Shown one piece after another: positions 12,705-47,097 of a stretch of DNA of 64,000 nt; positions within the stretch are counted from its first letter, which is position 1, and each line of letters begins with the position of its first letter. The stretch is from a phage. The notes beneath the pieces were generated by a model. That model had not been told where the DNA came from and did no database searches. It saw only the letters and a program-made list of their open reading frames with translations. Both the position numbers and the translations under genes were made by a program. The stretch lies in the NCBI GenBank assembly GCA_011884725.1, contig GCA_011884725.1_3919.1; one strand, given 5' to 3'.

Positions 12705-13169
12705 TTACTTTGGATATACACTGTCAAGATAAATGTCAGCTTCCATTCTACGTCTATTTTTCAAGCCGTTTGAAGTTACCTTCTTACCTTTGACTGTAAT
12801 CTTGTTCCACCACTGCATAGCTTCTGCACAACCTACCTTATTACCAGCATTGTGGCGCTTGATAAATGTAGAGTCCTGCATAGCTGTGATACCGATGTTA
12901 TATGTTTCACTTACAAGTGCATCGAACTCATTCTGAGAAGTTGGAGCCTTGATAGCTTTGTTCACTGCTGCAACAAACTTTTCAACATCTGCGAGAAGAT
13001 ACTGTTCAGCTTGTTCAGCCGTGATTTTCATACCCATCTTAACAGGTTTCCCGTCAATACGGATTGTACCATACCCGATTGTTGGGATTCCGGCAGAGTC
13101 TTCGTAAGCCTCTAACTCCAGACCTTCGAAGAACTTAATAGCGTCTAAACCTTTTCTTGAGAGTTGCAT
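12705..13169 (-). CDS. endolysin, T4-lysozyme-like (GH24) muramidase
   Basis: FFEGLELEAYEDSAGIPTIGYG matches the T4 lysozyme catalytic region [22 protein letters not shown] (Glu-Asp-Thr spacing). Confidence 0.85.
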   Translation of the reverse strand: MQLSRKGLDAIKFFEGLELEAYEDSAGIPTIGYGTIRIDGKPVKMGMKITAEQAEQYLLADVEKFVAAVNKAIKAPTSQNEFDALVSETYNIGITAMQDSTFIKRHNAGNKVGCAEAMQWWNKITVKGKKVTSNGLKNRRRMEADIYLDSVYPK

Positions 13170-16380: not shown

Positions 16381-17796
16381 ATGAGCGAATTATTTAAACA
16401 TGCGCACCTTCATGCAGGTCGAACTGAAAATGGTGCTGTAAACCATACTTCATCAATGTCTGCTCTTGTAGACTTTTACAAAGCTGCTGGTTCAAGCCGT
16501 AGCAATGTAGAAATCTTACCAGACCTGTTCTACAAAGCTTTGCGTGAGGATGTTGATGTTGCAGTTCGTATTTTACTGCATATGCGAGATGTACGAGAAG
16601 GTATGGGTGAGCGTAAAGCCTTCAGAACTGTTTTACTTCAAGCGATTGAAGACAAAGTTTTAGAGCCTACGCAGGTTCTTCGCATTATGGATAAGATTGC
16701 AGAACTTGGTCGTTTTGATGACTTCAAAATCTTTGTAGGTACTCGTTTCGAGACAGATGCCTTCAAGCATTTAGAAGCAGCATTACTAGACCCTGCAACA
16801 GCAGGTTTGGCAGCTAAGTGGTTACCACGAGTCAAACCACGTCATAAGCAGTTTGTAAAACGTTTCTGCAAGTTTGCCAACTTGAGCGAGAAAGAGTACC
16901 GCACACTGTTGTCTGCACTATCTGATACAGTTGAGCAAAAAATCTCTGCTAATGAGTTTGGTAAGATTGACTACAGTAAGATTCCTTCACTTGCTGCTGC
17001 ACGCTACCAAAAACTGTTTAACCGTAAAGATGGAGAGCGATACAAAGCTTACATCGAGTCCTTATCAAAGGGTGAGGCTAAGATTAATGCTGGTGCTGTT
17101 TACCCATACGATGTGATTAAATCTGTCAAGCATGGTAATGCAGATGTTGCTAATGAGCAGTGGAAAGCACTACCAAACTGGATGGCAGAAGGTGAAAACA
17201 TCTTGTGTATGTCTGATGTATCAAGTTCAATGTCTTGGGTGAATTTTGGCTCCATTACTGCTCTGGATATTGGTGTATCACTTGCCTTGTATGTAGCAGA
17301 ACGCAATACAGGCTGCTTTAAGAATGAGTTGATGGTTTATTCAACAAACCCTCACTTCATCGAACTGAGTGGTGATTTACGAAACCGTCATCGTCAGGTG
17401 ATGCGACACGTTGAATATGGCTCAACTAACTTACAAGCAGCTTTTGACCGCATTCTTGAAACAGGTAAAAGAAACAACTTGACTCAGAAAGATATGCCAA
17501 GTAAGCTTATCATCTTCTCCGATATGGAGTTCAATCAGGTTGATGGAGCTAACGGTCGTACAAACTTTGAAGCAATTCAGAGTAAGTACAAAAAAGCTGG
17601 ATATGAGATGCCACAACTGGTATTCTGGTACTTAGCAAACCGTAATGGTACTTGCGAAGTGTCTGTTAAGGATAACGGTGTAGCAATGGTATCTGGTTTC
17701 TCTCCAGCCACTTTAAAAGCTCTGCTTGGTGGTGAGAAGTTTGACCCAATCAGCGTAATGCTCAAAGCAGTAATGATTGACCGTTATATCTGGTAA
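16381..17796 (+). CDS. vWA-domain protein with helical N-domain (possible TROVE/Ro60-like architecture)
   Basis: 471 aa; C-terminal vWA with MIDAS-like DVSSSMS (DxSxS) and downstream T and D positions (IIFSDMEF); helical N-domain of about 270 aa; sits directly upstream of the tRNA array. Confidence 0.7.
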   Translation: MSELFKHAHLHAGRTENGAVNHTSSMSALVDFYKAAGSSRSNVEILPDLFYKALREDVDVAVRILLHMRDVREGMGERKAFRTVLLQAIEDKVLEPTQVLRIMDKIAELGRFDDFKIFVGTRFETDAFKHLEAALLDPATAGLAAKWLPRVKPRHKQFVKRFCKFANLSEKEYRTLLSALSDTVEQKISANEFGKIDYSKIPSLAAARYQKLFNRKDGERYKAYIESLSKGEAKINAGAVYPYDVIKSVKHGNADVANEQWKALPNWMAEGENILCMSDVSSSMSWVNFGSITALDIGVSLALYVAERNTGCFKNELMVYSTNPHFIELSGDLRNRHRQVMRHVEYGSTNLQAAFDRILETGKRNNLTQKDMPSKLIIFSDMEFNQVDGANGRTNFEAIQSKYKKAGYEMPQLVFWYLANRNGTCEVSVKDNGVAMVSGFSPATLKALLGGEKFDPISVMLKAVMIDRYIW

Positions 17797-17814
17797 AAAG
17801 TTTTAAAAAGGGTA

Positions 17815-17843
17815 TTGACAATGTGTTTAATACCCTTTAATAT
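17815..17843 (+). promoter_or_regulatory. promoter of tRNA array
   Basis: TTGACA (17815-17820), 17-nt spacer, TAATAT (17838-17843); a second TTGACA lies at 17906. Confidence 0.6.
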
Positions 17844-17961
17844 GTTCTACATAGAAACGAAATGAGAGCTTTTCTAAGATACTGAAAAATATTTTAAAAA
17901 AGTTCTTGACAACCACTAAAAAATAATGTTAAAGTGGTTACATAGAGTTTGAAAAGTTTAT

Positions 17962-18038
17962 CTCTGTTTAGCTCAGCTTGGTAGAGCGTTCCGTTTGGGG
18001 CGGTAAGGCCGGAGGTTCAAGTCCTCCAACAGAGACCA
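17962..18038 (+). tRNA. tRNA-Pro (anticodon TGG)
   Basis: 7-bp acceptor CTCTGTT/AACAGAG, T-arm GGAGGTTCAAGTCCTCC, anticodon loop TTTGGGG, encoded CCA. Confidence 0.75.
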
Positions 18039-18045
18039 AATTAAT

Positions 18046-18123
18046 GTTCCAGTAGACAAAATGGTAAAGTCACCACTCTTTCAAAGTGGATATCTGAGGG
18101 TTCAAATCCCTTCTGGAACGCCA
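18046..18123 (+). tRNA. tRNA-Glu (anticodon TTC)
   Basis: Acceptor GTTCCAG/CTGGAAC, anticodon stem CCACT/AGTGG, loop CTTTCAA, T-loop TTCAAAT, CCA. Confidence 0.75.
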
Positions 18124-18126
18124 GTT

Positions 18127-18205
18127 TTGACAGAAGACCAATTACAGCAAACTTAATCTTATTCATCTGAAGGTAAATCGGACAAAGAAGAGATTTGGTC
18201 TGGTC
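18127..18205 (+). ncRNA. inter-tRNA structured element E1
   Basis: CAGAAGACC-box, helix AGACCAA (18135-18141) / TTGGTCT (18195-18201), TTACAGCAAA box inside. Confidence 0.5.
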
Positions 18206-18214
18206 ATTAAGAAT

Positions 18215-18291
18215 TGCGGGTATAGAGAAAGGGCGTCTCACATGTCTCATTAGCATGGTATCGGCAGGTTCGACTCCTGCACCCGCCTCCA
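18215..18291 (+). tRNA. tRNA-Met-like (anticodon CAT) with 1:72 mismatch
   Basis: Anticodon stem CATGT/GCATG, loop CTCATTA, T-arm GCAGGTTCGACTCCTGC, 3' ACCCGCC-T-CCA; 5' end TGCGGGT leaves position 1 unpaired. Confidence 0.6.
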
Positions 18292-18294
18292 AAT

Positions 18295-18365
18295 TTACAG
18301 AAGACCGTTTACAGCAAAATTGAATGAAATTTTTAGCGGAAAAATTGAAAGATACGGTCTGGTAA
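18295..18365 (+). ncRNA. inter-tRNA structured element E2
   Basis: Helix AGACCGT (18302-18308) / ACGGTCT (18354-18360); compensatory to E1; TTACAGCAAAA box. Confidence 0.5.
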
Positions 18366-18375
18366 TACTAAACAT

Positions 18376-18449
18376 GGTTAGGAAGCACATAAGGTATGTG
18401 CGGTCGCCTGTTAAGCGAATGGCACAGGGTTCGAATCCCTGACTAACCG
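18376..18449 (+). tRNA. tRNA-Asn (anticodon GTT)
   Basis: Acceptor GGTTAGG, D-stem GCAC/GTGC, anticodon loop CTGTTAA, T-arm CAGGGTTCGAATCCCTG; no encoded CCA. Confidence 0.65.
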
Positions 18450-18461
18450 CAAAATTGAAAT

Positions 18462-18549
18462 GTGTCGTTATCCCGTAGATGGTAGCGGTGGGGACTGTAA
18501 ATCCCTTGTCATTGAGACTCGGTAGGTTCGACTCCTACACGGCACACCA
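18462..18549 (+). tRNA. tRNA-Tyr (anticodon GTA), long variable arm
   Basis: Acceptor GTGTCGT/ACGGCAC, anticodon loop CTGTAAA, long variable arm, T-arm GTAGGTTCGACTCCTAC, CCA. Confidence 0.7.
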
Positions 18550-18554
18550 ATAAA

Positions 18555-18631
18555 GGCTATGTAGTTTAACTGGAGAAAATACTCCCCTGTCACGGGAGAT
18601 GATGTGAGTTCAAGTCTCATCGTAGCCGCCA
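18555..18631 (+). tRNA. tRNA-Asp (anticodon GTC)
   Basis: Acceptor GGCTATG/CGTAGCC, anticodon stem CTCCC/GGGAG, loop CTGTCAC, T-loop TTCAAGT, CCA. Confidence 0.75.
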
Positions 18632-18685
18632 AATTATAATAAGTATTTCAAAATGATGTTTTGAGAGGGCTATTTAGCCCCTCCC

Positions 18686-18716
18686 TTAAAGAGTTCTTAC
18701 GAGTATTCTTTAAAGG
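18686..18716 (+). ncRNA. hairpin with conserved TTCTTACGAG loop, copy 1
   Basis: TTAAAGAGTTCTTACGAGTATTCTTTAAAGG; second copy at 22027-22056 has a different but still complementary stem. Confidence 0.45.
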
Positions 18717-18795
18717 AGCAGAAGACCAAATACAGCAAGAATGTATGATATTTTCAAGCCAATCCAATTTTGAAAAAATTTAAAACTTGGTCTGG
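18717..18795 (+). ncRNA. inter-tRNA structured element E3
   Basis: CAGAAGACC box, helix AGACCAA (18723-18729) / TTGGTCT (18787-18793), ATACAGCAAG box. Confidence 0.5.
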
Positions 18796-18804
18796 CTCAA
18801 CAAA

Positions 18805-18939
18805 TTTACAGAAGACCGTTTACAGCAAAACTTAAACAATCTATTTCTCGGTAAAGAAAAGGCGAAGGTTCGATTCCTTCACTCGGCAGATGTCGAGTTG
18901 GTGTAATGGTAGCACTTAAGATGATAAACAACGGTCTGG
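18805..18939 (+). ncRNA. element E4 enclosing a tRNA-like module
   Basis: Helix AGACCGTT (18813-18820) / AACGGTCT (18930-18937); inside: T-arm GAAGGTTCGATTCCTTC, hairpin ACTCGGC-AGAT-GTCGAGT, D-arm-like GTGTAATGGTAGCAC. The order is 3'-half before 5'-half. Confidence 0.45.
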
Positions 18940-18940
18940 T

Positions 18941-19084
18941 AATTATCTTTGTAGATAAGTTATTAAGCTTACCTGTGAGTATGCGACCACAAAGGGTGAA
19001 AGGGTAAATTCTAGATTTAAACCCAAAAAGGCACATCGCTACAGACCTTAAGCAAGTCTGGGTAGCTTATCTACAAAGATAATT
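18941..19084 (+). ncRNA. structured RNA closed by a 19-bp perfect helix
   Basis: AATTATCTTTGTAGATAAG (18941-18959) is the exact reverse complement of CTTATCTACAAAGATAATT (19066-19084); inner hairpins include CAGAC/GTCTG. Confidence 0.5.
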
Positions 19085-19088
19085 TAAT

Positions 19089-19164
19089 GGAAGTGTAGCA
19101 GAATGGTGATGCGGCAGACTTTTAATCTGACAGGCGATGGGTTCGAATCCCTCCACTTCTACCA
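19089..19164 (+). tRNA. tRNA-Lys (anticodon TTT)
   Basis: Acceptor GGAAGTG/CACTTCT (G1.U72), anticodon loop CTTTTAA, T-loop TTCGAAT (weak T-stem), CCA. Confidence 0.65.
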
Positions 19165-19168
19165 ATAT

Positions 19169-19245
19169 GGTTCAGTCGCAGATAAGGTAATGCAAGGGTC
19201 TCATAAGCCCTATGAATGTGGGTTCGATTCCCATCTGAACCTCCA
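19169..19245 (+). tRNA. tRNA with CAT anticodon (elongator Met or Ile2-type)
   Basis: Acceptor GGTTCAG/CTGAACC fully paired, anticodon stem AGGGT/GCCCT, loop CTCATAA, T-loop TTCGATT, CCA. Confidence 0.65.
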
Positions 19246-19246
19246 A

Positions 19247-19322
19247 GCTGGTATAGTTAAGAAGGTTATAACACTCCCCTGATAAGGGAACATCGGTGGT
19301 TCGATTCCACCTACCAGTACCA
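19247..19322 (+). tRNA. tRNA-Ile (anticodon GAT)
   Basis: Acceptor GCTGGTA/TACCAGT, anticodon loop CTGATAA, T-arm GGTGGTTCGATTCCACC, CCA. Confidence 0.7.
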
Positions 19323-19337
19323 ATTTCAATAAAGTTG

Positions 19338-19366
19338 TTGACATTGAGATGTGACTACTTTATAGT
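19338..19366 (+). promoter_or_regulatory. internal promoter within tRNA array
   Basis: TTGACA (19338-19343), 17-nt spacer, TATAGT (19361-19366). Confidence 0.6.
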
Positions 19367-19568
19367 AACCTTAGTTTTCGTTGCGTAGCGTCTATTTTGC
19401 AAATTTAAAATAAATGCAAACGACAATGTTTTTCTGGCAGTAGCTTGATAGGCTAAACACCAGTGAGGTCTTCCAATCCCTCATCAAAGAATTTGGCGTA
19501 CTCGCCCACGGTATGATTAATAAGGTGGGCATCTTTAAGGGCTTTCTAAGAGAGTCTTTAAAGATAAT

Positions 19569-19645
19569 GCACCCTTAGTTCAATTGGATAGAGCAACGGT
19601 CTTCTAAATCGTTAGTTACAGGTTCGAATCCTGTAGGGTGTACCA
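19569..19645 (+). tRNA. tRNA-Arg (anticodon TCT)
   Basis: Acceptor GCACCCT/AGGGTGT, D-arm TAGTTCAATTGGATAGAGC, anticodon loop CTTCTAA, T-loop TTCGAAT, CCA. Confidence 0.75.
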
Positions 19646-19787
19646 AATAGTTAGCAGATTACTTAGACGGCCTTAGCGGGTCTTCCTGTAGGGAGGTGGT
19701 CTGTATCTCATGTTTTCCAGAACATGTAAATAATCTGAGAAGAAGCTTGACAGTGTTGAGATAACAGGGTAAGCTTCGAATTATAAT

Positions 19788-19870
19788 ATGGGACGATGTT
19801 AAGACTCTAAGGCATGAGCAACGGCCTCCAAAACCGTTTCAAAGGGGTTCAACTCCTCCGTCCCATGCCA
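19788..19870 (+). tRNA. atypical tRNA (anticodon probably CCA, Trp?)
   Basis: Acceptor ATGGGAC/GTCCCAT, T-loop TTCAACT, CCA; anticodon stem AACGG/CCGTT encloses 9 nt (CCTCCAAAA); D region is 4-8 nt longer than usual. Confidence 0.45.
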
Positions 19871-19883
19871 AAGTCTTATTAGG

Positions 19884-19971
19884 GGTAGGTAGCGGCTAAT
19901 GGTAGCCAAACTGTCTTGAAAACAGTTGCCACTGTAGAGATACGGTGAGGGTTCGACTCCTTTACTTACCG
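19884..19971 (+). tRNA. tRNA-Ser (anticodon TGA), long variable arm
   Basis: Acceptor GGTAGGT/ACTTACC, anticodon stem ACTGT/ACAGT, loop CTTGAAA, long variable arm, T-loop TTCGACT. Confidence 0.65.
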
Positions 19972-20126
19972 CCTAATAAGATTTACTCCGTCCATGCTTG
20001 TTCGCATTGTCGGTTTATCCCTCGTGTATTGTCGTACACTGTCAAAGCACCTAGTAGGTGTCACGGAGAAGAGATAATATCAAGCTCTCCAAAGGTTCTA
20101 GTCACCGGATTAAACAAGACTATGCA

Positions 20127-20151
20127 AAGACCTATTTAGGTCTTTTTAGAG
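20127..20151 (+). terminator. intrinsic terminator inside tRNA array
   Basis: AAAGACC-TATTTA-GGTCTTT followed by TTTAG. Confidence 0.5.
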
Positions 20152-20227
20152 GGCTTCTAAGGTTATTAGTCGCTTGTTGTGGAACCTTGTTGCTTAGGTT
20201 CTTAGAAGTTCTCTAAAAAGATTTAAT

Positions 20228-20305
20228 GGGAGATTGACGGTAATTGGTAAACCTACCATCCTTAGAAGTTGGTGTTTGAGGGTTCGAATCCCTTGTCTCC
20301 TACCA
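20228..20305 (+). tRNA. tRNA, class I shape, anticodon TAG (Leu?)
   Basis: Acceptor GGGAGAT/GTCTCCT, anticodon loop CTTAGAA, 5-nt variable loop, T-loop TTCGAAT, A73, CCA. Confidence 0.5.
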
Positions 20306-20312
20306 AATTAAT

Positions 20313-20388
20313 GCAGGTGTAGCAAAATGGTTATGCGGCTGACTCTTAATCAGTAAGACGATGGGTTCAATTCCCTCCACCTGTACCA
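20313..20388 (+). tRNA. tRNA-Lys (anticodon CTT)
   Basis: Acceptor GCAGGTG/CACCTGT, anticodon stem GCTGA/TCAGT, loop CTCTTAA, T-loop TTCAATT, CCA. Confidence 0.6.
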
Positions 20389-20394
20389 AACATT

Positions 20395-20470
20395 GGGGAT
20401 GTAGTTTACATGGTTAAAACATAAGTTTTGCAAACTTAAGTACAGGGTTCAATTCCCTGCTTCTCCACCA
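20395..20470 (+). tRNA. tRNA-Cys (anticodon GCA)
   Basis: Anticodon stem AAGTT/AACTT, loop TTGCAAA, T-arm CAGGGTTCAATTCCCTG, CCA. Confidence 0.65.
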
Positions 20471-20476
20471 ATTAGT

Positions 20477-20551
20477 GCATCCATAGTTTAAACGGGAAAA
20501 TTACAGTCTTCCAAACTGAGGTTGAGGGTTCGATTCCCTCTGGATGCTCCA
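20477..20551 (+). tRNA. tRNA-Gly (anticodon TCC)
   Basis: Acceptor GCATCCA/TGGATGC, anticodon loop CTTCCAA, T-loop TTCGATT, CCA. Confidence 0.65.
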
Positions 20552-20557
20552 AACAAT

Positions 20558-20634
20558 GCTGCTTTCGTATAATTGGCTATTACACATCCCTTGTAAGGAT
20601 GGAAATGCAGGTTCGAGTCCTGTGAGCAGCACCA
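20558..20634 (+). tRNA. tRNA-Thr (anticodon TGT)
   Basis: Acceptor GCTGCTT/GAGCAGC, anticodon stem CATCC/GGATG, loop CTTGTAA, T-loop TTCGAGT, CCA. Confidence 0.7.
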
Positions 20635-20635
20635 A

Positions 20636-20730
20636 TTCAGAGGTCAAGTGAAAGACCGCTTTGAGTCAACTGAAGACCGTAACAAATACCACGGAGTTGA
20701 GTTAGCGGCACAACTTCAGACCTCTTTCAT
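20636..20730 (+). ncRNA. structured spacer element between tRNA-Thr and tRNA-Val
   Basis: Closing helix CAGAGGTC (20638-20645) / GACCTCTT (20722-20729); contains a GAAGACCGT box as in E2/E4; no T-loop. Confidence 0.4.
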
Positions 20731-20805
20731 ACTCGCTTAGTTTATATGGTAAAACATCACCCTTACAAGATGAAGAAAAAGGTTCAAGTCCTTTAGTGAG
20801 TACCA
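20731..20805 (+). tRNA. tRNA-Val (anticodon TAC)
   Basis: Acceptor ACTCGCT/AGTGAGT, anticodon loop CTTACAA, T-arm AAAGGTTCAAGTCCTTT, CCA. Confidence 0.6.
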
Positions 20806-20806
20806 T

Positions 20807-20884
20807 GTTCCAGTATCCCAATTGGCAGAGGATGCAAGCTCAAACCTTGTATTAGTGACGGTTCGAATCCGTCTTGGAACACCA
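20807..20884 (+). tRNA. tRNA, class I shape, anticodon CAA (Leu?)
   Basis: Acceptor GTTCCAG/TTGGAAC, anticodon stem GCAAG/CTTGT, loop CTCAAAC, T-arm GACGGTTCGAATCCGTC, A73, CCA. Confidence 0.5.
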
Positions 20885-20889
20885 ATTTT

Positions 20890-20965
20890 GCAGGATTAGT
20901 TCAAATGGAAAGAGCAACAGTCTACGAAGCTGTTAATAGGGGTTCGAATCCCTTATCCTGCGCCA
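20890..20965 (+). tRNA. tRNA-Arg (anticodon ACG)
   Basis: Acceptor GCAGGAT/ATCCTGC, D-stem GTTC/GAGC, anticodon stem ACAGT/GCTGT, loop CTACGAA, T-loop TTCGAAT, CCA. Confidence 0.75.
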
Positions 20966-20982
20966 GATAAAAAGGTGATACT

Positions 20983-21225
20983 ATGCAAACATTAACAGTA
21001 GTTGAACATGAAAACTGTGAGAGTATTGAGTTTGTCAGGGTCATTGGTGTTGAACACCACATTTTCTTAAAAGTGGGATACTTATGTGACCCCGCTAGAG
21101 TAGAAAGATTTATACGTGATTGTTTTGGTGGTAGACATCTGAAGAGTGTTATTTTTGAGACAGTTTTACCAGAAGGTTTAGAAACGAATAATAACATTTA
21201 CCTCCTTACGAGGATTAGACAATGA
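20983..21225 (+). CDS. hypothetical protein embedded in tRNA array
   Basis: 80-aa ORF; RBS AAAGGTGA 7 nt upstream of ATG. Confidence 0.5.
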   Translation: MQTLTVVEHENCESIEFVRVIGVEHHIFLKVGYLCDPARVERFIRDCFGGRHLKSVIFETVLPEGLETNNNIYLLTRIRQ

Positions 21226-21779
21226 GATACTTAAAGTATGCTTCATGGATTTTCTTAGCTTTGTTAGAGCCATTTGCAGCAATCTTAGCAGTTATCTTAG
21301 CACCTTTTGTAGTTCCATTCTACAGTGAGAAGAAAGGACACTTACCTTTCGGGTTCAGATGGATGGAGACATATGACAACCCAATTGATGGTGATGAAGG
21401 TCACGTTAAAAGATGGGCTAATATTAGATGGATTGGTAAACTAGGTGTCTACATGCAAAGAGTCGGATGGCTCTGGAGAAACAAAGCTTATAACTTCTCT
21501 TACCATGTATTAGGAAGAGATGTAAGAGATGTTACTAAGTGGAAAGGTAATATCAACGTAAGTTCTAACCCTGAAGATAATCAGACTGGTTATCTCCTAA
21601 TGTGGAACAGTAATGCTTGGGGATTATTCGCTTTTATCCCATCAATTAAAGTCTTCGGTAAACAGTTTTACTGGAGAATTTATGTTGGATGGAAACTTAA
21701 AAGTGTTGTCCCAGAAGAAAGAGCATTCTCAAGGGAAAGAGTTATGTTGGCATTCTTTATTCATCCACTGAGAAAGTAA
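21222..21779 (+). CDS. hypothetical membrane protein embedded in tRNA array
   Basis: 185 aa; N-terminal TM segment (WIFLALLEPFAAILAVILAPFVVPF); start overlaps previous stop; RBS GAGGA. Confidence 0.6.
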   Translation: MRYLKYASWIFLALLEPFAAILAVILAPFVVPFYSEKKGHLPFGFRWMETYDNPIDGDEGHVKRWANIRWIGKLGVYMQRVGWLWRNKAYNFSYHVLGRDVRDVTKWKGNINVSSNPEDNQTGYLLMWNSNAWGLFAFIPSIKVFGKQFYWRIYVGWKLKSVVPEERAFSRERVMLAFFIHPLRK

Positions 21780-21787
21780 AGATTTAA

Positions 21788-21863
21788 AGGGGATTAGTTT
21801 ACAAGGTTAAAACCTCGGTCTTTGAAATCGAAGAAGTTGGTTCAATTCCAACATCCCCCGCCA
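21788..21863 (+). tRNA. tRNA-Gln (anticodon TTG)
   Basis: Anticodon stem TCGGT/ATCGA, loop CTTTGAA, T-arm GTTGGTTCAATTCCAAC, 3' ATCCCCC-G-CCA; position 1 (A) unpaired with C72. Confidence 0.6.
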
Positions 21864-21865
21864 AT

Positions 21866-21944
21866 GCTCCATTACTCCAATTGGCAGAGAGGCCAGACTT
21901 AAAATCTGTGTTATGTATCGGTTCGAATCCGATATGGAGTACCA
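21866..21944 (+). tRNA. tRNA, class I shape, anticodon TAA (Leu?)
   Basis: Acceptor GCTCCAT/ATGGAGT, anticodon loop CTTAAAA, T-arm ATCGGTTCGAATCCGAT, A73, CCA. Confidence 0.5.
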
Positions 21945-21949
21945 AATTT

Positions 21950-22025
21950 AGCGGTATAGCATAACTGGCAATGCAGCAGTCTCTGAAGCTGTCCTATTAA
22001 GGTTCAAATCCTTATGCCGCTGCCA
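21950..22025 (+). tRNA. tRNA-Gln (anticodon CTG)
   Basis: Acceptor AGCGGTA/TGCCGCT, D-stem GCAT/ATGC, anticodon stem GCAGT/GCTGT, loop CTCTGAA, T-loop TTCAAAT, CCA. Confidence 0.6.
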
Positions 22026-22026
22026 C

Positions 22027-22056
22027 TTCTAAGGATTCTTACGAGAGTCCTTAAAT
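22027..22056 (+). ncRNA. hairpin with conserved TTCTTACGAG loop, copy 2
   Basis: TTCTAAGGATTCTTACGAGAGTCCTTAAATG; stem TAAGGATTC/GAGTCCTTA. Confidence 0.45.
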
Positions 22057-22132
22057 GTGGCCTTATCATAAATGGTAATGACCCATGCTGTGAACATGGT
22101 CTATACGGGTTCAAATCCCGTAGGTCACCCCA
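22057..22132 (+). tRNA. tRNA-His (anticodon GTG)
   Basis: Acceptor GTGGCCT/AGGTCAC, anticodon stem CCATG/CATGG, loop CTGTGAA, T-arm ACGGGTTCAAATCCCGT, CCA. Confidence 0.7.
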
Positions 22133-22138
22133 ATTTAT

Positions 22139-22214
22139 AGTCCAAGTAGCTTATATGGTTAAAGCGCGTGTCTGAAAAACATGAGAAGAGGGTTCAAATC
22201 CCACTGGACTACCA
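22139..22214 (+). tRNA. tRNA-Phe (anticodon GAA)
   Basis: Acceptor AGTCCAA/CTGGACT, anticodon stem CGTGT/ACATG, loop CTGAAAA, T-loop TTCAAAT (short T-stem), CCA. Confidence 0.6.
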
Positions 22215-22230
22215 ATTTCAAAGGTGCTTA

Positions 22231-22965
22231 ATGAAAGAGATGACAGAACAAGGTAAGGAGATTTTCAATCTCTTAAAAACCGGTAAAGGGTTTTCTAACC
22301 CCCTTATTACTGGTGCAGCAGTTCTCGGTGGAACCGTAGCTGCCTCTACATCACTTGTAAGCTCTATTAGCTCTGTATCAGACCCTACAGTAAAGGATAA
22401 GCTTGTTGCTGCTGGACTTACAACAGTTCTGCTTAACAGCTTTACCACGAGTCTGACAAGCACTACATCAACTACCAAAACACTAACAGATTACGGTCAA
22501 AAGTCCATTGATGAGTTTTCATCACGTATGCAGGTAGCAAAAGGTTACTCTAATGTTATGGGTGCAGCAGGTGAACAAGTTGGCTGTACACCATTTAGTG
22601 GTATTATGGGTGTTGCTACAGAGTATGGTCAAAAAACTATTGATACGATTAACAGTGTACTAGATAGTGTTAATGGTGTGTTAAGTGACTTACAAGATGC
22701 TATTGACAAAGGTCTTGATACTATTTCTGATTTAGCTGAGCAAGCTGTTAGTAAGATTAATGAAGGTATTTCAAAAATTACAGCTTATGCAGATGAAGTT
22801 GTGCAGATGATTGAAGAAGAAGCTGCTCTTATTGCAGAGTACCTTAAAACGAATATCAATGGGTTCTTAGCAGGTATCTTACCAGACTGGTTTGATGATG
22901 CTTGTAAAACTGGTGTAATTGACACTATTGCAACACCAGAAATGAAGAACGCATTACAGAAATAA
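22231..22965 (+). CDS. hypothetical protein (Ser/Thr-rich N-half, helical C-half)
   Basis: Listed ORF starts at 22168 inside tRNA-Phe; in-frame ATG at 22231 with RBS AAAGG chosen. Confidence 0.55.
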   Translation: MKEMTEQGKEIFNLLKTGKGFSNPLITGAAVLGGTVAASTSLVSSISSVSDPTVKDKLVAAGLTTVLLNSFTTSLTSTTSTTKTLTDYGQKSIDEFSSRMQVAKGYSNVMGAAGEQVGCTPFSGIMGVATEYGQKTIDTINSVLDSVNGVLSDLQDAIDKGLDTISDLAEQAVSKINEGISKITAYADEVVQMIEEEAALIAEYLKTNINGFLAGILPDWFDDACKTGVIDTIATPEMKNALQK

Positions 22966-22967
22966 AT

Positions 22968-23060
22968 GGAAGATTAACCCTAAAAGGTAAGGGAGCAGTT
23001 TGCTAAACTGCCAGTAGCTGAGAAATCGGTGTACCAGTTCAAGTCTGGTATCTTCCTCCA
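22968..23060 (+). tRNA. tRNA-Ser (anticodon GCT), long variable arm
   Basis: Acceptor GGAAGAT/ATCTTCC, D-stem CCC/GGG, anticodon stem GCAGT/ACTGC, loop TTGCTAA, long variable arm, T-arm ACCAGTTCAAGTCTGGT, CCA. Confidence 0.7.
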
Positions 23061-23064
23061 ATTT

Positions 23065-23140
23065 GAATCCGTGACAGAAACGGCTATGTGCCTGTCTGCA
23101 AAACAGGTTTATAAGGGTTCGAGTCCCTTCGGATTCTCCA
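23065..23140 (+). tRNA. tRNA with GCA anticodon (second Cys-like)
   Basis: Acceptor GAATCCG/CGGATTC, anticodon stem CCTGT/ACAGG, loop CTGCAAA, T-arm AAGGGTTCGAGTCCCTT, CCA; atypical D-arm. Confidence 0.5.
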
Positions 23141-23237: not shown

Positions 23238-23303
23238 ACAGAGTTATACTTTATAGGAAGACTTATACAGTATGTCTCTGACGTACATTGTGGTTTCTCC
23301 TTG

Positions 23304-23331
23304 ACGGTCTCTGTGCCGTCTTTTTTAAGGG
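23304..23331 (+). terminator. intrinsic terminator
   Basis: GACGG-TCTCTGTG-CCGTC followed by TTTTTT. Confidence 0.55.
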
Positions 23332-46531: not shown

Positions 46532-46729
46532 ATGCCTACAATCCTAGCAATTCTTCTAAAAAATCTAGGTAGCTTCTTCTGGAAACTCATTTTATCCCTT
46601 CTAAGTGAATACATGATTGAGAAAGTGTTCTTTAAGCTTGCAAGATACCTTGCGAGTAAAACAGACACACCTATTGATGATGAGTTCGTAGATAACTTAG
46701 AAAAAGCTTTTAAGGGGGAGAATAAATGA
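46532..46729 (+). CDS. hypothetical small membrane protein (holin-like?)
   Basis: 65 aa; hydrophobic N-terminus (ILAILLKNLGSFFWKLILSLL), charged C-terminus. Confidence 0.45.
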   Translation: MPTILAILLKNLGSFFWKLILSLLSEYMIEKVFFKLARYLASKTDTPIDDEFVDNLEKAFKGENK

Positions 46730-47097
46730 AGTGGCTAGAGGATGCTTTTAAAAACAATATTGGTGCAATTGTAGTTGGTATTTTTAGTGTTATTGGAATG
46801 TATACCACTATGCAAGTTTCAAGTGGTAAGCAAGAAGTATCTGTCACAACAAAGTTACAGCAGCTAGATAATTATTCCAAAAGTAACTATTCAGCTATTC
46901 GTGATTTACAGTCTGACATGAGACTGATTCAGCTAGGGATGGAGAACCAGAAAGTCCAGTTAGAGAATGTTAAGGGTGAAAACGCAAAACTTACCAAAAC
47001 CCTTGATAAATTCTCTGACAGTGTGAACAATCTGGCTCAATCAGTATCAGCCTTGCAAGCTATTACTGAAAAGAACACAAAGAATACTGAAAAATAA
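46726..47097 (+). CDS. membrane-anchored coiled-coil protein
   Basis: 123 aa; TM segment IGAIVVGIFSVIGMY then helical Q/L/N-rich region. Confidence 0.5.
   Translation: MKWLEDAFKNNIGAIVVGIFSVIGMYTTMQVSSGKQEVSVTTKLQQLDNYSKSNYSAIRDLQSDMRLIQLGMENQKVQLENVKGENAKLTKTLDKFSDSVNNLAQSVSALQAITEKNTKNTEK

Follow-up and report, generated by a model that had tools for sequence, protein, structure and literature searches.

What do protein-coding genes do in the middle of a phage tRNA array, and does their position reveal their function? We addressed this question in a stretch of phage DNA of 64,000 nucleotides (nt) (NCBI GenBank assembly GCA_011884725.1, contig GCA_011884725.1_3919.1), which as a whole is called the window below. 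Two open reading frames (ORFs) of 80 and 185 amino acids (aa), referred to here as ORF80 and the DUF7338 gene (Table 1), are embedded in its array of 26 tRNA genes on the plus strand at 17962-23140 (ARAGORN). The region matches Escherichia phage vB_EcoM-Ro111lw at 99.8% identity and wV8 at 98%; both phages belong to Felixounavirus, in the subfamily Ounavirinae. An earlier note, made from the sequence alone, had placed the pair between tRNA-Arg(ACG) and tRNA-Gln, as was confirmed by the coordinates, by ARAGORN and by Rfam for both bordering tRNAs; it had also proposed co-expression with the tRNAs and a role in host takeover or in defense against tRNA-targeting nucleases. We tentatively prefer another explanation, which the sequence comparisons make possible rather than probable: the DUF7338 protein may be a membrane-anchored accessory protein of the envelope or of lysis that is expressed from the tRNA operon, and not a tRNA-defense factor.

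Family, predicted fold and conservation

The 185-aa protein matched Pfam DUF7338 at 206.3 bits (threshold 27; E 4e-61), with residues 1-184 aligned to positions 1-176 of the 180 in the model, and PHROG 2143 at E 1.1e-79; Pfam DUF7338 was also matched by all 30 aligned homologs. ORF80 matched PHROG 14202 (E 1.2e-37). Thus, the statement that no family was recognizable did not hold, and these families have no function assigned in the databases. The window protein is a plain member of its two families and deviates from them in nothing; it is already catalogued not only there but also through its orthologs Felix O1 ORF109, wV8 gene 53 and SUSP1 gp134. A word-indexed search yielded 39 relatives, and a full profile search yielded 888 relatives as 50%-identity clusters (E <= 0.001), of which the best 150 were almost all single-domain proteins of 160-215 residues. 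Of 50,697 deposited phage genomes, 600 carry DUF7338. When 185,579 genomes of bacteria and archaea were scanned with a pattern, six loci only were returned, one of them a phage-sized contig; therefore, the family is essentially viral.

With 11 Trp, 13 Arg and a hydrophobic N-terminal segment (residues ~6-33), the protein agrees with its first description as an N-terminal transmembrane helix followed by a Trp/Arg-rich body. The AlphaFold2 model (predicted local distance difference test score, pLDDT, 94.9) comprises a five-stranded sheet and several short helices in addition to a helix of 32 residues at the N-terminus. Its matches in BFVD were uncharacterized viral proteins only. We found no relative of solved structure by sequence, profile or fold search against the PDB, no match beyond its own families in Pfam, NCBIfam or PADLOC, and no paper naming DUF7338 in the searchable literature. 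As modeled, the domain would have a fold that matches no solved structure, on a protein that is predicted to be membrane-anchored. The N-terminal hydrophobic segment was universal in 165 near-full-length members, in which the best 19-residue window of the first ~60 residues had a Kyte-Doolittle mean of 2.17, and the remainder of the protein after the helix carried a median net charge of +7 and ~11 Trp. The net charges of the helix flanks (N-terminal, +1.1; C-terminal, -0.2) mildly favor an N-in/C-out orientation, whereas the net charge of +7 on the C-terminal domain complicates the assignment, so the charge statistics are indecisive.

Conservation was assessed in an alignment of 170 members, drawn mostly from representatives of the 50%-identity clusters. 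W83, R86 and N87 were 100% conserved; T50, D52, G57, G109, G123, G156 and W157 were at least 96% conserved (T50 and G57, 98%; D52, 96%), and D58 was conserved in 88%. The window protein has the full signature, including G156-W157-K158, with motif conservation of 88-100%. Among Felixounavirus relatives, the ratio of nonsynonymous to synonymous substitution rates (dN/dS) of the gene was 0.04-0.18, and its variable sites were distributed over the three codon positions as 18/5/47. The conserved polar residues (T50, D52, D58, R86, N87 and K158; 88-100%) raise the alternative of a membrane-anchored enzyme that acts on an envelope lipid or glycan (lipopolysaccharide, lipid II or phospholipid) and serves a metabolic or takeover role apart from lysis timing. 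The confidently modeled globular domain, the membrane anchor and the strong purifying selection are in line with such an enzyme; however, no sequence or structural similarity to any enzyme was found, and we regard this alternative as unlikely.

Two homologs stood apart. A copy at 5917-6554 of L033, a 121-kb IMG/VR contig, is 82% identical in DNA to that of the window, but a frameshift divides it into two ORFs; it has no tRNA gene within 6 kb and is possibly a pseudogene in a different type of phage. Homolog P0037 appears as a chimera with a tail-fiber C-terminal domain, probably an assembly or gene-calling artifact of adjacency.

Endolysin and tail-fiber genes as neighbors

Outside the tRNA arrays, the DUF7338 gene adjoins endolysin or tail-fiber genes in at least eight other lineages. 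On the same strand, it adjoins a GH24 lysozyme gene in L060/61, L062, L077/78 and Aeromonas phage Ah1 (in the first three, some GH24 copies have signal-arrest-release-like N-termini, and Rz/Rz1 are nearby), a GH19-like endolysin gene in L052 (lineage 7, 250-kb genomes) and an amidase-like endolysin gene in L070 (lineage 8, including L073/75/79); in L055/L068 (lineage 2), the neighboring ORF was taken as GH19-like by position and size only. Because the three endolysin types are unrelated, this adjacency suggests that the role in lysis or at the envelope is generic and not tied to one particular enzyme. T4-like genomes have their tRNA cluster upstream of the e.8-e.1-e (endolysin) region; in VR5, DUF7338 is found in the interval between them, and in STML-198 it lies 930 nt upstream of the lysozyme gene e. 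Tail-fiber, tail-fiber-assembly or tailspike genes are the other recurrent neighbors: tail-fiber genes precede DUF7338 in L060, L062, Ah1 and phiM9, and tailspike genes follow it in Totoro. No protein family was common to the neighborhoods of all 25 lineages, and apparent ones were alternative-frame ORFs within DUF7338 itself.

The Ah1 genome carries more than 20 tRNA genes at 93-103 kb, whereas DUF7338 is located at 213.5 kb, ~110 kb away and 2 nt before the lysozyme gene e. The gene order is long-tail-fiber genes, DUF7338, e, an ORF for a 147-aa membrane/coiled-coil protein and asiA (reverse); that is, the cassette fills the slot that holin gene t holds in T4 (37, 38, t, asiA). A search of the complete Ah1 genome for a T-holin homolog found none (best E 0.16), although T4 T and the T5 holin, compared as a positive control, matched at 6e-22. 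Homologs of rIII and of the spanins PseT.2/PseT.3 are present in Ah1. DUF7338, an endolysin and a small protein that combines a coiled coil with a membrane helix at its N-terminus recur as a trio at L096 42421-43890 (Ah1 213537-215006), L062 5995-7313, and L060 3448-3780 and 5995-7082; homology links the small proteins of L062 and L060 to each other (E 1e-6), and that of Ah1 is weakly similar (E 0.002).

We compared the DUF7338 protein with the class III holins T4 T and T5 holin (PHROG 860). The likeness consists of a single membrane helix at the N-terminus, to which a globular domain of ~150 residues is attached, of a similar size (185 vs 218 aa), and of homologs that lie beside endolysin genes and, in Ah1, in the t slot. 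In contrast to T, the DUF7338 protein has no sequence or fold similarity to it and lacks its ~30-residue cytoplasmic N-terminus, and the gene sits here in a probably early tRNA operon; hole formation is putative only. Homology to T-holin was accordingly rejected, given that Pfam and PHROG returned nothing but the two families of the protein and that the model resembles no structure solved so far. A transmembrane segment, as expected of a holin, is present, whereas linkage to an endolysin gene is seen only in distant homologs and not in the window. The signs of expression time are mixed: four Dhakavirus loci carry a late promoter, and the ORFs of the Felix O1 tRNA region peak at 5 min (with gene numbering of our own derivation). 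On the explanation we prefer, the DUF7338 protein would be an accessory component of the lysis or envelope machinery, for which the candidate roles are those of a holin-like protein, of a modulator of holins or of a factor that acts on a substrate in the envelope; it would not be the main holin, and it would act neither on tRNAs nor on anticodon nucleases.

A better holin candidate is in fact encoded in the window, at 46532-46720 on the plus strand, as a small membrane protein of 65 aa with a charged C-terminus. Beside it, after tail-fiber genes, a 124-aa membrane/coiled-coil protein is encoded at 46726-47094 (plus strand). These two proteins are 93-94% identical to SUSP1 agp027 and agp028, which were scored as "Fit" and "Not Fit", respectively, in a CRISPRi-ART study (PMC11879866). 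The 65-aa protein is likely the true holin of this phage; agp028 is the one annotated as "putative holin", a label under which a protein of another kind may be listed. No T-holin homolog was found in the window, and the authors of the Felix O1 genome paper did not find a holin-lysin cassette (PMC3185647). 

Several points weigh against an envelope or lysis role. Besides the better candidate at 46532-46720, the window has its endolysin gene 8 kb away on the minus strand (12705-13169), with no gene for a membrane protein next to it. T4-like coliphages that carry DUF7338 presumably keep holin t, and DUF7338 is therefore not simply a holin substitute. The early transcription in Felix O1 is unlike that of a holin; the invariant polar residues point to catalysis or to specific binding, neither of which is typical of holins; and the small membrane/coiled-coil protein in the DUF7338 lysis cassettes could be the true holin. 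The recurrence beside tRNA genes in at least four unrelated phage groups goes beyond chance, and hot-spot behavior is all that an envelope or lysis role offers to account for it. A point in favor of the role is that the SUSP1 ortholog was "Semi-Fit" in the CRISPRi-ART study (1.24, p 0.087, three guides), the class to which T4 holin t was also assigned (PMC11879866). However, the spurious ORF agp137, which overlaps tRNAs, was "Semi-Fit" as well (PMC11879866); therefore, the score of DUF7338 may be a polar effect on tRNA processing.

The membrane anchor and the tail-fiber neighbors are also what superinfection exclusion or receptor masking would lead one to expect. Here, an early inner-membrane protein would block DNA entry or alter the envelope, as T4 Imm/Sp, T5 Llp and Cor do, and would thereby stop a second phage from infecting or the progeny from being lost to unproductive adsorption; these proteins resemble the DUF7338 protein in being small, accessory, envelope-located and probably early, and in having genes for receptor-binding proteins as neighbors. 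A tail-fiber-adjacent position is classical for llp and cor, and tail-fiber or tailspike genes flank DUF7338 in L060, L062, Ah1, phiM9 and Totoro; the P0037 chimera carries a tail-fiber domain. The probable early transcription in Felix O1, the modest fitness cost of knocking down this accessory gene, and the presence/absence variation of ORF80 with its two deeply diverged alleles are further points in its favor. However, the family searches gave no similarity to known exclusion proteins, and the DUF7338 protein is not homologous to the proteins named above. Exclusion proteins are usually receptor-specific and fast-evolving, whereas DUF7338 is conserved across phages of Escherichia, Klebsiella, Pseudomonas, Aeromonas and Sinorhizobium, hosts with unrelated receptors. 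In addition, exclusion leaves the adjacency to three types of endolysin and the Dhakavirus late promoter unexplained. We consider it rather unlikely.

A bolder form of the lysis explanation seems doubtful to us, if still worth stating. DUF7338 would be a new class of lysis protein without structural precedent, a holin or an essential partner of one, that displaced T in Aeromonas T4-like phages (Cinqassovirus) and was rewired into the tRNA operon in Felix O1-like phages, Avunavirus and Otagovirus; lysis or the envelope would then be controlled through the tRNA precursor and its processing by RNase P/E, and ORF80 would modulate it from the cytoplasm as a variable component.

The apparently new element is the dual context of the family, in tRNA arrays and at endolysin/tail-fiber junctions, together with the replacement of t in Ah1, the optional but anciently coupled ORF80 and the lack of any structural relative. 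Carriers of DUF7338 include Felix O1-like, Klebsiella, Enterobacter and Cronobacter phages that are candidates for therapy. A lysis or envelope function would make DUF7338 a new class among the known lysis proteins of phages, would help to explain lysis control where holins are only candidates (Felix O1-like phages and Ah1), and would mean that tRNA arrays serve as expression platforms for functions other than those of tRNAs. "Holin" labels are now spreading for DUF7338; we found no evidence that supports them. The gene is a good and cheap experimental target, and so far nothing about it would surprise phage biologists.

Recurrence beside tRNA genes and expression from the array

The association with tRNA genes recurs in at least four unrelated phage groups and is real. 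A same-strand tRNA gene lies at most 1.1 kb upstream of DUF7338 at every Felixounavirus, Suspvirus and Mooglevirus locus, and likewise in STML-198 (Gelderlandvirus). DUF7338 lies between Asp and Ser tRNAs in the 85-kb relative L023, between Gly and Gln tRNAs in Av-05, between Phe and Met tRNAs in the array of 18-19 tRNAs of Karamvirus PG7, between Met and Lys tRNAs in S13-like phages, and between Val and Trp tRNAs in Pseudomonas Otagovirus phiPsa397, whose protein is only 26% identical. In RB43-like (Pseudotevenvirus) and KP15-like phages, it follows a Met or Gly tRNA by 0.6-1.1 kb; in Dhakavirus, it follows tRNA-Arg(TCT) by ~0.23 to 1 kb; and in the uncultured lineage L056/59/66, it follows a Met or Arg tRNA by 17-267 nt. 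The flanking tRNAs in Av-05, L023 and the T4-like phages are other isoacceptors, and their similarity to the tRNAs of the window is unremarkable; for example, a tRNA-Gln(TTG) was 67% identical while the protein was 78% identical. Because the flanking tRNAs differ from group to group, the association does not go back to one inherited junction, and we rejected the transfer of a cassette of tRNA plus gene, since the tRNAs are not unusually similar between groups.

By a rough estimate, tRNA arrays make up ~5-7% of the genomes, and ~1% of T4-like genomes with one to three tRNAs; therefore, four or five independent placements in ~25 lineages exceed chance. The RB43-like loci have a single tRNA in the 12.5-kb locus, ~0.9 kb from DUF7338, and the chance of this placement, also roughly estimated, is ~1% if it is the only tRNA of the genome. 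These figures would fit a function tied to tRNAs, in which DUF7338 protects, processes or exploits the phage tRNAs or counters tRNA-cleaving defenses or imported tRNase toxins; the strongly basic domain and the same-strand tRNA within 1.1 kb upstream in many groups, despite different flanking tRNAs, can be read in the same way. However, a strong GC-rich hairpin with a T-run stands directly upstream of DUF7338 (in the ~120 nt before the gene; L025-L049, L092) in every T4-like lineage, with a sequence that differs between them, and the four Dhakavirus loci have the T4 late-promoter consensus TATAAATA at -34, directly after the hairpin. The terminator, with the late promoter in Dhakavirus, thus insulates DUF7338 from the tRNAs in T4-like phages. 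In RB43-like phages, the DUF7338 ATG follows the T-run by ~15 nt, and a promoter was not visible.

Other observations also argue against a tRNA-tied role. Within 6 kb of DUF7338, any tRNA gene is lacking in at least 12 lineages, and the association is not kept wherever an array is present, as Ah1 demonstrates by placing the gene beside e and far from its own array. Conversely, Shigella phage ESh21 has a full array without DUF7338. The membrane anchor is universal, and no RNA-binding, nuclease, ligase, kinase or defense family was matched in Pfam, NCBIfam or PADLOC. A tRNA-tied function is quite improbable in our view, and the proposed defense against tRNA-targeting nucleases loses its footing for the same reasons, namely the membrane anchor, the lack of a family match, the terminators of the T4-like phages, the location in Ah1 and the many lineages in which DUF7338 adjoins endolysin or tail-fiber genes with no tRNA gene nearby. 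The comparison of synteny gave a divided answer: neighboring tRNAs recur, but elsewhere an endolysin/tail-fiber context takes their place.

Protein genes inside phage tRNA clusters are already known, e.g., T4 segB, and SegB drives the preferential inheritance of the T4 tRNA region (PMC2330249). The present locus resembles T4 segB/trna.1-4 and the HNH endonuclease genes of T5 and Felix O1 type in having a same-strand protein gene among tRNAs in a variable region; unlike them, DUF7338 is neither a nuclease nor a mobile gene but a conserved membrane protein under strong purifying selection. Being embedded in a tRNA array is not by itself evidence of a tRNA-related function. We assume that the array may be an accessory region that is transcribed early, tolerates insertions and is prone to the activity of homing endonucleases. 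In the extreme case, DUF7338 would be a hitch-hiking accessory gene with no link to tRNAs or lysis, kept through hot spots driven by homing endonucleases. HNH endonucleases in the arrays of relatives (SUSP1 agp136), the precedent of SegB (PMC2330249), the coming and going of ORF80 and tRNA-Arg(ACG), and the frameshifted copy in L033 are compatible with a passenger. Nevertheless, the low dN/dS and the invariant or near-invariant signature in 170 sequences indicate a selected function, and repeated pairing with endolysins is not expected of a neutral passenger, making this case highly improbable.

Regarding expression in the window, the best plus-strand promoter match of the region is TTGACA-17-TATAGT at 19338-19366. 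In Felix O1, an identical sequence has been proposed as promoter P45 (PMC3185647); shuffled sequence contained at least as many promoter matches as the region did. The next good plus-strand terminator is at 23303-23320, 3' of the last tRNA, and no strong signal was found in between; a plus-strand scan from tRNA-Arg to tRNA-Gln found nothing comparable to this promoter or terminator, so the ORFs are most simply part of a tRNA-mRNA precursor. Reverse transcription polymerase chain reaction detected transcription of ORFs 45, 46, 48 and 49 in the tRNA region of Felix O1, which peaked at 5 min (PMC3185647). If the genes of the Felix O1 annotation are counted between P45 and terL (gp52), gp48 is the DUF7338 gene; this mapping is ours and not that of the paper. 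Transcription would start at the 19338 promoter, run through the tRNAs and both genes and stop at the 23303 terminator, and 3' and 5' processing of the tRNAs would free an mRNA of ~822 nt with a 17-nt leader and an 8-nt trailer. DUF7338 would be translated by coupling to ORF80 or, where ORF80 is missing, from an AGAGG site of its own. This scheme resembles the "tRNA punctuation" of mitochondria, as the coding block is bounded on both sides by tRNAs within 8-20 nt and tRNA processing would for that reason define both mRNA ends; it differs in that it is deduced here from the genes alone, and T4-like relatives have a terminator/promoter context of their own. Co-expression with the tRNAs, as suggested in the earlier note, therefore fits the apparent single unit of the window but does not extend to the insulated genes of the T4-like relatives.

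ORF80 and the layout of the array

ORF80 is a real but optional gene. Its dN/dS was 0.15-0.30, and its frame was the sole open one of six in all nine carriers, down to 28-45% identity; the nine include two Mooglevirus homologs (39-45% identity) and Av-05 (28% identity). The motifs VGWxCDP, FETxLPE and NNxYxLTRxR were kept down to the Mooglevirus homologs. Taken together, the dN/dS values, the open frame and the 888 clusters of DUF7338 show that both ORFs are conserved and coding, a point that the earlier note had left to be checked. AlphaFold modeled ORF80 with low confidence (pLDDT 63), as three strands and two helices, none of which would span a membrane. ORF80 was found in 70 phage records, all from Ounavirinae as judged by taxonomy or genome size except for one that is filed under Staphylococcus, as against ~220 records with DUF7338 at 80% or higher identity to the window protein. 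Among 22 Felixounavirus-like IMG/VR loci, 10 carry ORF80 and 12 do not; Felix O1 and SUSP1 also lack it. In loci without ORF80, a spacer of 19-20 nt with an AGAGG site separates the upstream tRNA from the DUF7338 ATG; this tRNA is Arg(ACG), except in three loci that have Leu(CAA).

The two genes overlap in ATGA, at the stop of ORF80 and the start of DUF7338. Mooglevirus HP1 carries the pair. In Avunavirus Av-05 (Vequintavirinae), ORF80 has a 75-aa homolog (98% probability in hhalign, E 2.5e-13) that is joined to DUF7338 by an ATGA overlap as well; the pair is ancient. We found no ORF80 homolog in the T4-like or other DUF7338 lineages searched. For the same genome pairs, the synonymous rate dS was 0.66-0.83 in ORF80 vs 0.08-0.28 in DUF7338; therefore, ORF80 comprises old alleles that recombine independently. 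In Shigella phage ESh21 (Mooglevirus, L098 1405-1799; a record marked UNVERIFIED), the ORF80 homolog and the full array are kept, DUF7338 is precisely absent, and tRNA-Gln begins at the stop codon of the small ORF. Because each gene also occurs alone, we rejected an obligate two-gene module of the toxin-antitoxin or holin-antiholin kind; the two are functionally linked at most loosely. The description of the pair as coupled thus stands for the overlap and not for an obligate partnership, in view of Felix O1, SUSP1 and ESh21.

An antisense ORF of 91 aa at 20922-21197 on the minus strand, annotated in wV8 as "gene 52", was rejected as spurious because it overlaps tRNA-Arg and contains stop codons in four relatives. 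It is probably annotated in other records too (two features under ORF80), and these GenBank records can be corrected accordingly.

The borders of the insert differ in their constancy. In the spacer before ORF80, 8 of 17 positions vary among relatives, whereas the junction of DUF7338 and tRNA-Gln(TTG) is identical in 22/22 Felixounavirus-like loci. tRNA-Arg(ACG) is itself optional among Felixounaviruses; it is missing in L005, L006 and L020, and tRNA-Leu(CAA) therefore abuts DUF7338 there, again with a spacer of 19-20 nt.

Table 1. Features of the protein-coding insert and of its surroundings in the tRNA array; coordinates are positions in the window.
Feature	Position	Strand	Basis or remark
Promoter-like site of sigma-70 type, TTGACA-17-TATAGT, 11/12 matches	19338..19366	+	Likely start of the tRNA/ORF transcription unit; consensus match only
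tRNA-Arg(ACG), CCA end encoded	20890..20965	+	Upstream border of the protein-coding insert; ARAGORN, Rfam
Spacer, 17 nt, with Shine-Dalgarno AAGGTGA for ORF80	20966..20982	+	Sequence
ORF80 (PHROG 14202), small soluble protein, optional partner gene of DUF7338	20983..21225	+	
DUF7338 (PF24027, PHROG 2143), 185 aa, predicted single-pass membrane protein with basic, Trp-rich alpha+beta domain	21222..21779	+	
DUF7338 N-terminal hydrophobic helix, residues ~6-33	21237..21320	+	Helix in AlphaFold model at residues 2-33
DUF7338 conserved loop T50-Y-D52-N-P-I-D-G57-D58	21369..21395	+	Alignment, 170 members
DUF7338 signature W83-L-W-R86-N87	21468..21482	+	Alignment, 170 members
tRNA-Gln(TTG), 8 nt 3' of the DUF7338 stop codon	21788..21863	+	Downstream border; ARAGORN, Rfam
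Second embedded protein gene, DUF7217 / PHROG 2114, between tRNA-Phe and tRNA-Ser(GCT)	22231..22965	+	Start set by the beginning of the Pfam match (inferred)
Terminator-like hairpin with T-run, intrinsic, 3' of the last tRNA (Cys)	23303..23326	+	Likely end of the transcription unit

The second protein gene of the array, DUF7217, was used in a homolog search meant as a control, which returned only close Ounavirinae relatives. Its product is rich in coiled coil and has weak tape-measure and ZorA-like matches; a long ORF call from 22168 overlaps tRNA-Phe. The SUSP1 ortholog of this gene was "Not Fit" in the CRISPRi-ART study (PMC11879866).

Directly upstream of the array, a 471-aa ORF is located at 16381-17796 (plus strand). 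SUSP1 agp131, at the same position and of the same length (1416 nt), is annotated as a DUF2828/vWA "RNA-binding protein". Bas63 gp130, whose position matches that of this ORF, is reported to be Ro60-like and to counter the Ppl defense, and some phage "tRNAs" have been suggested as its Y-RNA-like partners (PMC11482910); we assumed orthology of the 471-aa ORF to agp131 and gp130 from position and length. A hairpin with a 12-bp stem at 17807-17838, just 3' of this ORF, overlaps a promoter-like TTGACA-17-TAATAT, and a second promoter-like site lies at 17906-17935, just 5' of the first tRNA. The counterpart of the 17807-17838 hairpin in Felix O1 is the bidirectional terminator t42/t43.

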